DNA of 64,000 bases from Escherichia phage vB_vPM_PD112 (NC_054928.1), one strand, 5' to 3'. Counted from the stretch's first letter, positions 36,351 to 39,901 are shown. Made by a program: numbers and translations. The notes: a model not told the origin generated them from the letters alone.

Positions 36351-36824
36351 TTATTTGATTTGTTTAGCAGACCAAATGCGGTCTTTGATAATTTTTTGGA
36401 TGTCTTCAACATATTCAAGAGAGTGAACATGTGGGTTATCTTTGAAACTATAAGCACGAGCTAACTTTTGGCCTTCAGTTTTGATTACTAAAAGCTCTTT
36501 AAGGATAGCTTCATATCTGGAGATAATTCCTTTAACGATATTTTTCTCTTGTGTGACTTTAGGATCTGCTTTAGGAGCAGGTTTACCCGAAGCCTTTGCA
36601 AAAGCAGCGCCAGTAGCAACTAAACTTTTCCAGGCCATACTAACTGCATTTCCCGTAAATCCTTCTGCTTTCATGTCGCGAGCAAACTGGAATCGTGATT
36701 CGTCAGAAGCATCTTTATAGGAATATTTACCCGCTGCAATGGCTGCTTTTGCGACAGCTTGAATTTCGGTGCTAGATGCTTCATTTAACACCGCTTCATT
36801 TAAAAATTGAGCATATGATTTCAT
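36351..36824 (-). CDS. internal (capsid-packaged) protein with capsid targeting sequence
   Basis: N-terminus MKSYAQFLNEA is CTS-like; own late promoter TATAAATA upstream; terminator hairpins on both sides. Confidence 0.6.
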   Translation of the reverse strand: MKSYAQFLNEAVLNEASSTEIQAVAKAAIAAGKYSYKDASDESRFQFARDMKAEGFTGNAVSMAWKSLVATGAAFAKASGKPAPKADPKVTQEKNIVKGIISRYEAILKELLVIKTEGQKLARAYSFKDNPHVHSLEYVEDIQKIIKDRIWSAKQIK

Positions 36825-37215: not shown

Positions 37216-37292
37216 TGGTCGAGGCAGAAGGATTCTAACCTTCAACCAACGGATTAGAAATCCGTTGCTCTATACAATTGAGCTATGCCCCG
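37216..37292 (-). tRNA. tRNA-Arg (anticodon UCU)
   Basis: Hand-folded cloverleaf; 7-bp acceptor stem with one G-U; anticodon loop TTTCTAA; encoded CCA. Confidence 0.7.
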
Positions 37293-37295
37293 TAA

Positions 37296-37961
37296 TTAAA
37301 ATTTCATTTTTCGACCTTTAAACCATCCTTCTGGAATTGGGTCAGTTTTCTTAATACGTTTAGAAACTTTTTCATCTAATGAATGAATCCACATCATGCC
37401 AAATTGGGAATTCTTTTCACCTTGTTGGTGTTTATTTCTGGCGTGAGATTCTTTCATTTTATTAATAGTTTCAGGAGTATGATGCTTATTTAAAAATCTG
37501 CTATTATTTAAAAATTTTTCCCTGTATTCAGGAGTTGACCACAAGCGTTTAAATACATTTGAACCATTTTTACGATATTTTTCTTGAAGTAAAATATCAT
37601 TTTTAAAACGTGACTTAAACGATTTAGCTCCTTTTAAACTAGCGTCTTTCTTCTGATTTAGCATCTCAGGAATATTTATATGATCCCATCCACCTTCACC
37701 GCCAAGTTTTAAATTATACACATCAGGTCTATTTAAAAACTCTTCTGTGACAATATTTTTCTCGGCTTCAAGCATAGATTCTTTATCGTCAAAATATTCT
37801 AATATTTCTTTAGAAAAATTTTCTATACCATACCTGTCTTGGGCTCTTTTTAATAATTTACCAGAACCCATATATCCATCATCTAAATTTTCGGTAGAAT
37901 GCACACCAATATAAATTTTATTATTAATTTTATTTGTTATTTTATAAGCGTAATGGAACAT
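37296..37961 (-). CDS. segB: GIY-YIG homing endonuclease SegB
   Basis: 221 aa; YAYKITNKINNKIYIGVHST GIY-YIG motif; inside tRNA cluster as in T4. Confidence 0.85.
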   Translation of the reverse strand: MFHYAYKITNKINNKIYIGVHSTENLDDGYMGSGKLLKRAQDRYGIENFSKEILEYFDDKESMLEAEKNIVTEEFLNRPDVYNLKLGGEGGWDHINIPEMLNQKKDASLKGAKSFKSRFKNDILLQEKYRKNGSNVFKRLWSTPEYREKFLNNSRFLNKHHTPETINKMKESHARNKHQQGEKNSQFGMMWIHSLDEKVSKRIKKTDPIPEGWFKGRKMKF

Positions 37962-38002: not shown

Positions 38003-38076
38003 TGACCCAGACCAGATTCGAACTGATAACCTTTCCCTTATGAGGGGACTGCTGCTAACCATTGAGCTACAGGGCC
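38003..38076 (-). tRNA. tRNA-Ile (anticodon CAU; may score as Met)
   Basis: Hand-folded; T-arm ATCAG/TTCGAAT/CTGGT; anticodon loop CTCATAA; one acceptor mismatch. Confidence 0.65.
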
Positions 38077-38082
38077 TTGATA

Positions 38083-38155
38083 TGCTGATTGACGGAATCG
38101 AACCGCCGACCTTCTCATTACAAGTGAGTTGCTCTACCTACTGAGCTAAATCAGC
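38083..38155 (-). tRNA. tRNA-Thr (anticodon UGU)
   Basis: Acceptor GCTGATT/AATCAGC; anticodon loop CTTGTAA; T-loop TTCGATT. Confidence 0.8.
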
Positions 38156-38162
38156 GAAATTA

Positions 38163-38249
38163 CGGAGGCGATAGGATTTGAACCTATGAGTCGCCGGAGC
38201 GACTGCCGGTTTTCAAGACCGGTGCATTAAACCACTCTGCCACGCCTCC
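38163..38249 (-). tRNA. tRNA-Ser (anticodon UGA), long variable arm
   Basis: Acceptor GGAGGCG/CGCCTCC; anticodon loop CTTGAAA; long extra arm; T-loop TTCAAAT. Confidence 0.8.
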
Positions 38250-38251
38250 AG

Positions 38252-38325
38252 TCTCCGTGGCAGGATTTGAACCTACGACATTCTGCTCCCAAAGCAGACG
38301 CTCTACCAAACTGAGCTACACGGAG
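38252..38325 (-). tRNA. tRNA-Pro (anticodon UGG)
   Basis: Acceptor CTCCGTG/CACGGAG; anticodon loop TTTGGGA. Confidence 0.8.
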
Positions 38326-38337
38326 TAAATTAAATTT

Positions 38338-38409
<72 letters not shown>

Positions 38410-38415
38410 AAACTT

Positions 38416-38502
38416 TGGTACGAGAAGTGGGACTCGAACCCACAAGGAAATCATTCCGCAGCATTTTAAGTGCTGTGCCTTTACCAATTTGACCATTCTC
38501 GC
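38416..38502 (-). tRNA. tRNA-Leu (anticodon UAA), long variable arm
   Basis: Acceptor GCGAGAA/TTCTCGT; anticodon loop CTTAAAA; encoded CCA. Confidence 0.8.
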
Positions 38503-38508
38503 TCTATA

Positions 38509-39141
38509 TTATTTATTACGTGAAAAAGATTGTTCTATCAATTCTGGACACTTTCGTTCTATCCATTTTCTAGCTTTTTGTGGGCTTATACCTATTATTT
38601 TAGCAGCTTTACTAACCCATCCAAATTTAGAATAATCGATTTTAACTAATTCTTCGTAAATTTCATCAGTTAAAATCTTTTCATTAATATTTACCAGTAA
38701 ATGATATAATTTATTATCATTAGCAATTTTAATGAATCTTTTATAGTTTCCGCCTTTACTTAAACCTAATGAAGTAATTGCAGATGATATAGTAGCCGAA
38801 TTTAATAGTGCGTTTAAAATTTCTTCATCACTAACATTATAACGCTTTTTATTATTTTTAATATTTTTACCAGCAAAAGTATCAGTTTGCGAATGGCAAT
38901 TTGGACATAATAATCTTAAATTTGATTTAAGATGATTTTTGTTATTTCCATCAATATGGTCTAATTGCAGAACAATATGCTTATTTTGCCATTTTGAAAT
39001 TTTACAAATTGCGCACTCATATGGAAAAATATTTTCTTTTATTATTTTATCTTTCAGCTTTCCTGTACTAAAATTTGGATGTTTTCCTTCAAAAATTTCA
39101 GCTAATTTAGTATCCATAATATGATTCCCAATTATTAACAA
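38509..39141 (-). CDS. HNH homing endonuclease (mob-like)
   Basis: HNH motif LDHIDGNNKNHLKSNLRLLCPNCH; 210 aa; stop 6 nt from tRNA-Leu 5' end. Confidence 0.75.
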   Translation of the reverse strand: MLIIGNHIMDTKLAEIFEGKHPNFSTGKLKDKIIKENIFPYECAICKISKWQNKHIVLQLDHIDGNNKNHLKSNLRLLCPNCHSQTDTFAGKNIKNNKKRYNVSDEEILNALLNSATISSAITSLGLSKGGNYKRFIKIANDNKLYHLLVNINEKILTDEIYEELVKIDYSKFGWVSKAAKIIGISPQKARKWIERKCPELIEQSFSRNK

Positions 39142-39227
39142 AGGCTCTCAAGCAAGAACCCTTGATGATAGAGGGTATTAATCAGTGCGATATGAGTTAA
39201 TAATAACAAATAATTCTTAAAGCATAT

Positions 39228-39515
39228 TTACCATTTATAATAATACATATTTACGATGCATTCAAGACCCAAAGGATTCTTGAAAATATCATATTCAAGA
39301 GGACCTTTTTCCGTTTCAATAAAGAAATCAAAATTTACTGTATTAAATTTACGGTCTTCCTTCACTAATTTAACTTGAGAAGATGAACGATCAATGTAAA
39401 CCTTTTCAACTTCAAAACATGTTAAAATGCCATAATCATCAATCAAGACTTTAGCTGCTTCTTGATCATATTTATATCCATTTTCAATGGATGATACTTT
39501 CGCATAAAGAATCAT
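39228..39515 (-). CDS. hypothetical protein
   Basis: ORF track. Confidence 0.45.
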   Translation of the reverse strand: MILYAKVSSIENGYKYDQEAAKVLIDDYGILTCFEVEKVYIDRSSSQVKLVKEDRKFNTVNFDFFIETEKGPLEYDIFKNPLGLECIVNMYYYKW

Positions 39516-39517
39516 TA

Positions 39518-39901
39518 TCAGCCTTCATCAACAATAGTGTGAGTATGGGCATTTACGATTTGCCACCAGTCAAAACTATCGCCAAATCGTTTTGATTTAT
39601 TGTCTTCAATAATTTGGCGTAATTCATCTTCTGTTTCAGCATACGCAATCAAATCATCATATCCACCACGAGGATAATAATTATCACCTGCAAAAAGTAA
39701 AAAGTTTGGTTTAATGTTATTGAACTCTTCAAGAGTAATAACTTTTCCTGACGGTTGAACAATCTCTACATATTTATATCCCAATTTTTGAGCAGCATCT
39801 ACTGCTTCAAGCAGGGTATCATGAGCCCATCCAATTTGGCAATCTGGCTTTTCAGATGGATTAGCCTGATAATCCGCGTACACTTTATACATTCTATTCA
39901 C
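39518..39901 (-). CDS. hypothetical protein
   Basis: ORF track. Confidence 0.45.
   Translation of the reverse strand: MNRMYKVYADYQANPSEKPDCQIGWAHDTLLEAVDAAQKLGYKYVEIVQPSGKVITLEEFNNIKPNFLLFAGDNYYPRGGYDDLIAYAETEDELRQIIEDNKSKRFGDSFDWWQIVNAHTHTIVDEG

Follow-up and report, generated by a model that had tools for sequence, protein, structure and literature searches.

Apparent replacement of tRNA-Gln by a HegA-like HNH endonuclease gene at the head of a T4-type tRNA operon

The DNA analysed here (the window) is a 64,000-nt stretch from Escherichia phage vB_vPM_PD112 (NC_054928.1), a Tequatrovirus, or T4-like, genome; a 3.7-kb query centred on the HNH gene discussed below matches 953 phage records, the best of them at 92-96% identity. 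Read along the minus strand, the region contains gene 1 (dNMP kinase), 57A, 57B, an internal-protein gene, homologs of trna.4, trna.3 and trna.2 (the last at 39228-39515), an ORF with an HNH motif, and then the genes for tRNA-Leu, Gly, Pro, Ser, Thr and Ile(CAU), segB and tRNA-Arg. ARAGORN calls seven tRNAs in the window (Arg, Ile/Met-CAU, Thr, Ser, Pro, Gly and Leu) and finds no tRNA-Gln there. The left edge of T4 homology is formed by tRNA-Leu(UAA) (38416-38502, minus strand; ARAGORN and Rfam), which is 98.9% identical to its T4 counterpart, and the rest of subcluster I consists of tRNA-Gly, Pro, Ser, Thr and Ile(CAU) (38003-38409, minus strand; ARAGORN and Rfam). Beyond these lies segB (37296-37961, minus strand), a GIY-YIG homing endonuclease gene with a Pfam score of 25.3 bits against a gathering score of 22.6 and 96.5% DNA identity to T4 segB. 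The tRNA region accordingly holds genes of two unrelated endonuclease families, segB and the HNH gene, as a first-pass annotation of this DNA had claimed.

The cluster ends with a tRNA-Arg(UCU) gene (37216-37292, minus strand; ARAGORN). An alignment with T4, Killian and JoYop identifies it as a T2-type allele, for which only about 57% of positions match the T4 allele, and which is of the type found in JoYop (a T2-like cluster) and Killian. The presence of a T4-like segB beside a T2-type tRNA-Arg implies a mosaic junction at the end of segB.

The first-pass annotation described the HNH gene as a 210-aa ORF, and such an ORF, running from a TTG at 39141 to 38509 on the minus strand and containing the HNH motif LDHIDGNNKNHLKSNLRLLCPNCH, is indeed present in the ORF list. 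Its start, however, needs correction. The likely start codon is the ATG at 39117, which gives a CDS of 202 aa from ATG to TAA (38509-39117, minus strand) and agrees with the 609-nt 'HNH endonuclease' CDS of RefSeq relatives; a 202-aa protein cluster (P0001) is 100% identical to the window protein. The TTG belongs to a stretch that corresponds by homology to the T4 tRNA leader, and is placed at the base of the conserved hairpin of that leader. At the other end, 6 nt separate the stop codon (38511-38509) from the start of tRNA-Leu(UAA), the spacing originally noted. About 60 sequenced phages already have the gene under the annotation 'HNH endonuclease', and the literature searched for it yielded no paper in which it is described.

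The HNH (beta-beta-alpha-metal) core spans residues 35-75 (38893-39015, minus strand), with C35-x2-C38, D53-H54, N66 and C71-P-N-C74-H75. In a 39-sequence family alignment, residues C35, C38, H54, N66, C71, P72, N73, C74 and H75 are invariant, a set that comprises two CxxC zinc pairs (C35-x2-C38 and C71-x2-C74) and the H-N-H residues. Pfam PF01844 matches the protein at 17.3 bits (E 0.005), below its gathering score of 21.4. PHROG HNH families match at 5e-124 (its own family, PHROG 14736), 2.5e-29 and 1.3e-11, ranging down to 4e-4, and the PADLOC 'homing endonuclease' model matches at 2.8e-19. At E <= 1e-5, 5,510 relatives came out of a large protein search, and precomputed PF01844 matches are attached to many of them. 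The earlier identification of an HNH protein is thus borne out by PHROG, PADLOC and the invariant residues, with PF01844 remaining sub-threshold.

Toward the C-terminus, at residues of about 165-195 (GWVSKAAKIIGISPQKARKWI; 38533-38625, minus strand), there is a helix-turn-helix-like module. It is suggested by weak matches to Pfam HTH_29, P22_Cro and HTH_17 at residues 172-200, by a GWV...I.PQK..W block conserved in the 39-sequence family alignment, and by a structural model. The AlphaFold model, made with the 39-sequence alignment as input, has a mean pLDDT of 90.6 and consists of a strand-strand-helix core with about ten helices after it, those at 167-175 and 179-189 falling in the C-terminal module; a Foldseek search of the model against the PDB gave nothing significant. 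As modelled, the protein is an N-terminal HNH nuclease followed by C-terminal helical DNA-binding modules, which is the usual modular plan of phage homing endonucleases.

Several other family assignments were considered and rejected. Matches to PDB chains by sequence or profile were at chance level only (ComM, cytochrome c552 and TraI), and I-HmuI was not found among them. NCBIfam matches to IscB and ZorE were far below the cut-offs and confined to the shared HNH core. A terminase-associated HNH protein is discounted by the location of the gene, and to our knowledge T4-type packaging uses no such protein; a defence-system effector is discounted by the lack of partner genes.

The closest named relative is HegA of phage T5, which is also annotated as H-N-H endonuclease F-TflIV in some records (BLASTP 35% identity over 170 residues, E 9e-22, query residues 16-184; hmmsearch with the family profile, E 1.1e-35). 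Like the window protein, HegA has a CxxC...DH...N...CPNCH core followed by a C-terminal HTH-like block within the alignment, and like the window gene its gene is free-standing, on the tRNA strand and inside a phage tRNA cluster. It differs in having 227 aa, with about 55 extra N-terminal residues and without the middle helical module. Its position differs as well: hegA comes after tRNA-Ile2 in the T5 tRNA region, 23 nt downstream, with no replacement of tRNA-Gln, in the genome of a siphovirus of a different family. PMC2330249 and PMC10644984 (citing Akulenko et al. 2004) describe the T5 F-Tfl enzymes as endonucleases of the site-specific or homing kind that are encoded within the tRNA cluster.

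The comparators initially suggested, namely the T4 Mob proteins and I-HmuI, proved not to be relatives in this sense. In an 8-sequence database, T4 MobA-E, I-TevIII and gp49 gave no significant match to the HNH protein (E at least 0.07); the best Mob score, for MobE (E 0.071, 20.8 bits), falls outside the HNH core, and profile scores are 1.9 bits or less. A tblastn search with the HNH protein reaches 236 phage records at E <= 1e-5, and Mob-bearing T4-like phages number many hundreds. The Mob genes share with the window gene a free-standing, intergenic location in T4-like genomes, and MobA-E and I-TevIII belong to the same superfamily, although their insertion sites are different; F-TflIV and MobA-E are both placed in the broad group 1 of the His-Me finger classification (PMC5714182). 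The I-HmuI-type nickases are assigned to another His-Me group than F-TflIV (PMC5714182). I-HmuI and I-BasI have the same general plan as the window protein, an N-terminal HNH core with helical DNA-binding modules toward the C-terminus, the last of them an HTH, but they are intron-encoded, whereas the window ORF, flanked by a leader and a tRNA gene, is not in an intron. The window protein has no match to PF13392 or PF05551 (I-HmuI group) at E <= 0.1, and no other ORF of the 64-kb window matches the HNH family profile.

T4 SegB is a parallel in lifestyle and genomic neighbourhood, being likewise encoded by a free-standing endonuclease gene among tRNA genes, with an ORF that runs up to the start of the following tRNA. 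Its fold and motif (GIY-YIG) are unrelated to HNH, and SegB is experimentally proven, whereas the window gene is known by sequence. The cuts made by SegB fall within tRNA genes, and they lead to conversion of a competitor's tRNA region (PMC2330249). Taken as a whole, the comparisons support assignment of the ORF as a putative free-standing, homing-type HNH (His-Me finger) endonuclease gene of a T5 HegA-like clade, and not as a Mob gene, the word homing being used because of family membership and of the presence/absence polymorphism described below.

In T4, tRNA-Gln is located at 72458-72530, between tRNA-Leu and trna.2. The blastn breakpoints equate window position 38502 with T4 72456 (the first base of tRNA-Leu) and position 39124 with T4 72524, and by this and by interval comparison a 621-bp segment absent from T4 (38503-39123) stands in place of T4 72457-72523. 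It follows that 621 bp replace 67 bp of T4, that is, nt 8-73 of tRNA-Gln and a 1-nt spacer. On the trna.2 side, comparison with T4 reveals a 7-nt stub, TGGGAAT (39124-39130, minus strand), equal to the first 7 nt of T4 tRNA-Gln; inside the insert, Rfam at permissive thresholds detected no tRNA-Gln remnant or pseudo-tRNA. The anchor-to-anchor interval is exactly 621 bp in all eight carriers compared, with the same junctions, and 67 bp in all six non-carriers (T4, T6, T2, G2540-3, P8 and RB27). The identical junctions point to one insertion event as the common source. The first-pass annotation had placed the gene at the T4 tRNA-Gln position and raised the possibility that tRNA-Gln was displaced or deleted, and the alignment of the flanks with T4 agrees on both points; T4 has no ortholog at the site, but tRNA-Gln itself. 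The data therefore support the conclusion that the HNH gene has apparently replaced tRNA-Gln at the head of a T4-type tRNA operon.

The replacement leaves the gene downstream of the signals of the operon. The nearest upstream promoter-like site, found by pattern search, is a match to the MotA-dependent middle-promoter consensus, an established element of T4 biology (TGCTTTA, 12 nt, TATTAT; 39200-39224, minus strand). The pattern has 14 matches in the window compared to 2.4 expected, and in phage Lutter a 'promoter' is annotated at the position of this one. A generic sigma-70 scan was uninformative (11 sites versus 8.5 expected), and a terminator scan returned none. RNA folds of the window and T4 have in common an 11-bp leader hairpin (39139-39164, minus strand), which in T4 belongs to the tRNA-Gln leader and in which most SNPs between phages are in or beside the loop, and which might be a processing signal, an attenuator or a terminator for upstream transcripts; overall, the fold of the leader through the start codon is no better than that of shuffled sequences (z -0.4), and the start region is not sequestered. 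The promoter-like site and leader hairpin upstream put the HNH gene in the first slot of the tRNA operon, and it is probably co-transcribed with the tRNAs. The stub is situated 6 nt upstream of the ATG, and its GGGA, which is the only Shine-Dalgarno-like element and a weak one, may serve as the ribosome-binding site. Free-standing endonuclease genes of T4 use middle or late promoters (PMC2988022), and for segB and the T5 enzymes it has been proposed that tRNA processing limits expression (PMC2330249).

The HNH gene is carried, with an intact ORF, by 62 public phage records, all Tequatrovirus, with hosts in Escherichia, Shigella, Salmonella and Yersinia. The intact tRNA-Gln allele is found in 446 records, so that carriers make up about 12% of records, both counts being inflated by RefSeq/GenBank duplicates. 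Close relatives are polymorphic for the presence or absence of the gene, with the flanks conserved. The HNH gene occurs together with segB in the window, Killian and Lv5cm, in a T2-type Asn/Tyr arrangement without segB in Lutter, JoYop and slur03, and an extra 516-bp ORF may be present or absent upstream of it; this variety of cluster backgrounds indicates that it assorts independently of segB.

Among carriers the insert is 98.4-99.5% identical, compared to 92-97% for the other tRNAs and 80-91% for trna.3, a pattern that fits recent horizontal spread of the insert but does not prove it. Gene 1 is 97-99.7% identical among the same phages, and the 99% of the insert is not far above this. As a proxy for co-conversion, a carrier-specific SNP haplotype was sought in the 180 nt to the left and the 104 nt to the right of the insert, and none was found; the SNPs present are common to carriers and non-carriers. 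For the tRNA-Leu gene and the leader, conservation is much the same whether carriers are compared with one another or with non-carriers, and a carrier haplotype is lacking because the flanks are nearly invariant in all of the phages. With no co-conversion signature in the flanks, the data do not tell spread by homing apart from ordinary recombination, and a segment-wise identity profile around the insert is likewise suggestive without discriminating between modes of spread.

The family also has a deeper history at this place. Homologs with 68%, 58% and 58% identity (P0002-P0004) occupy the corresponding syntenic place in three T4-like contigs from metagenomes, in the order gp2-gp3-gp1-57A-57B-...-HNH-tRNAs. 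Diverged homologs at one syntenic position imply that the HNH lineage has long been tied to the head of the tRNA array, with a protein under constraint. In one of the contigs, the 68% homolog (L004 3911-4700) starts 15 nt after an intact tRNA-Gln(UUG), and 3 nt past its stop codon is the sequence GCGAGA..., the first six bases of T4 tRNA-Leu; neither ARAGORN nor Rfam calls a tRNA there, and Rfam at permissive thresholds detected no tRNA-Gln remnant or pseudo-tRNA downstream of the homolog.

The old association raises the alternative that the HNH allele is the older one in the Tevenvirinae and that tRNA-Gln replaced it in most Tequatrovirus, for example by SegB-driven co-conversion or by selection for the tRNA, leaving the HNH gene as a minority relic. 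Besides the syntenic homologs, it may be said for this scenario that SegB is known to drive replacement of segments of the tRNA region (PMC2330249). The 7-nt stub, however, is identical to the start of tRNA-Gln, which is expected if a tRNA-Gln was truncated and not if none had been there, and the combination of identical junctions and inserts of about 99% identity with neighbours that differ by up to 20% argues for one recent event. The coexistence of the 68% homolog with an intact tRNA-Gln further indicates that the two are not simple alternatives. We consider the scenario improbable, and retain the reading in which the HNH gene displaced tRNA-Gln.

How the displacement might have come about can be outlined as follows. 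The middle-type promoter and leader of the operon would drive the HNH gene together with the tRNAs, and RNase P, by cutting where tRNA-Leu begins, would leave the message with an end 6 nt past the HNH stop codon, i.e., a 3' tail of 6 nt. In a co-infection with a phage having tRNA-Gln, the enzyme would nick or cut the other genome in or beside tRNA-Gln, and recombinational repair from the carrier genome would copy in the HNH gene and delete tRNA-Gln, the carrier itself being immune because its target is gone. It appears quite probable, from the conservation of the gene and its distribution, that it is an active homing-type endonuclease gene. The location of its target is a more delicate matter. 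Because the flanks have no carrier-specific SNP, an enzyme that acts nearby while sparing its own genome would have to discriminate by the body of tRNA-Gln or its junctions. On the other hand, free-standing T4 endonucleases often cut some way from the insertion site, SegG being an example (PMC2988022), and given such cutting at a distance the HNH target need not be tRNA-Gln. We regard the chances that the target overlaps tRNA-Gln as evenly balanced.

The link to tRNA genes extends through the family. The family alignment was used to find 80 IMG/VR loci (L010-L089), a few of which are near-duplicate contigs. A tRNA is present within 3 kb of the HNH homolog in 76 of the 80, at less than 100 nt from the ORF in 54, and at less than 300 nt on both sides in 28; of the 599 tRNAs in these loci, 549 are on the strand of the homolog ORF. 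In 23 of the 80 loci the stop codon has a same-strand tRNA starting at a distance of -15 to +10 nt. tRNA-Leu accounts for ten of these abutting tRNAs, and the eight with anticodon UAA, as in the window, make tRNA-Leu(UAA) the commonest immediate downstream neighbour (8/23). Homologs of 42-45% identity are likewise found inside tRNA arrays, where their last 10 nt overlap the next gene, for tRNA-Lys (L007 4594-4603, L009 4549-4558).

In several relatives (L007, L009, L030, L038, L059 and L074) the ORF runs on through the 5' acceptor strand of the next tRNA (7 nt) and stops immediately after it, within the tRNA. In such cases the stop codon would be taken off the message by RNase P, whereas the stop codon in the window is 6 nt outside tRNA-Leu.

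That the family is almost always in tRNA arrays of unrelated phages could also mean that it recognises a generic tRNA-gene motif, and hence that the nuclease is active but has a main role other than self-propagation, such as broader exclusion of competing phages by cutting several tRNA genes or nicking of the phage's own DNA, or that it has been retained because expression of the tRNA operon has come to depend on it. There is a precedent in SegB, which recognises the T-psi-C motif (PMC2330249) and at high dose cuts several tRNA genes, and PADLOC gives weaker matches to ZorE-type HNH defence effectors. Against this, the ZorE and IscB matches are limited to the HNH core and partner genes are missing, and the carrier keeps six tRNA genes that are identical or nearly so to those of non-carriers, so that broad tRNA cutting would strike the carrier as well. 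In addition, marker exclusion and homing are two views of one mechanism and not alternatives. A principal role of this kind seems unlikely to us.

The ORF is not a chance one, which is ruled out by its intactness in the 62 records and by purifying selection on the gene. Relative to the 58-68% identical homologs, the HNH gene in the replaced slot has a dN/dS of 0.12-0.26, and across eight near-identical copies, all of full length, the variable codons include 10 that are synonymous-only and 3 with a real replacement. Defective homing endonuclease genes are frequent in phages, with T4 mobA and I-TevIII annotated as such, and the weak ribosome-binding site and sub-threshold Pfam score might suggest a similar inactive or decaying remnant hitch-hiking in the tRNA region, but selection of this kind, together with conservation of all catalytic and zinc ligands and the confident fold of the HNH model, makes this a very remote prospect.

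It is tempting to extend the picture of an active, homing-type enzyme from the window to the clade. HNH genes associated with viral tRNA clusters, in mycobacteriophages and others, were remarked upon earlier and were proposed to spread or reshuffle tRNA genes (PMC6409571); that study is a gene-content survey and does not include the HegA-like clade, the tight abutment to tRNA 5' ends or the exchange of a tRNA for an endonuclease gene. In the literature searched, we found no description of a HegA-like clade combined with tight abutment to tRNA 5' ends. Tentatively, then, there may be a large undescribed HNH clade specialised for phage tRNA arrays, whose members would recognise tRNA-gene DNA, swap themselves for whole tRNA 'slots' (here tRNA-Gln from nucleotide 8 onward) and borrow the promoter of the array, with their ORFs ending at or within the 5' acceptor stem of the following tRNA and RNase P trimming or removing the end of the message and limiting expression; on present evidence this is a possibility that we rate below its negation. 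If it were true, the clade would be a general driver of turnover in phage tRNA repertoires, beyond the cases of T4 SegB and T5 F-Tfl.

For T4 biology, the HNH gene would represent a third class of mobile nuclease gene for the tRNA region, beside SegB and unrelated to Mob, and the replacement accounts for the absence of tRNA-Gln in roughly one-eighth of sequenced Tequatrovirus records. The 621-bp and 67-bp alleles with identical flanks form a clean natural pair for testing target and homing. The insertion as such is a well-defined instance of a known phenomenon, and leaves current concepts unchanged. The part most worth following is the family-level link to tRNA arrays. The place of the relatives in such arrays, often directly against the next tRNA, suggests that these nucleases shape the tRNA content of phages, a point of some weight now that phage tRNAs are seen as counter-measures to host anticodon nucleases.

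Finally, we note other variation in the neighbourhood. The trna.3 homolog (39518-39901) is 80-91% identical among close relatives, compared to 94-99% for trna.2 and trna.4, and aligns only partially in T4, Killian and PYps5T. Downstream of the rnaC/rnaD region is a 157-aa ORF (36351-36824) that has no counterpart there in T4, Killian or Lv5cm and is 90-97% identical in Lutter, JoYop, slur03, PYps5T and phiD1. The extra 516-bp ORF mentioned above lies between the leader and trna.2 in some carriers and some non-carriers and is absent from the window and T4, and is thus another presence/absence polymorphism beside the HNH site (L091 4715-5230, L095 3410-3925; L100, L103 and L104 1719-2234). Among non-carriers (L099-L104), two tRNA-Gln(UUG) alleles exist in Tequatrovirus, with multiple differences that are all in the anticodon arm: one is found in T4, T6 and RB27, with T2 as a 1-nt variant, and the other in G2540-3, HP3 and P8.
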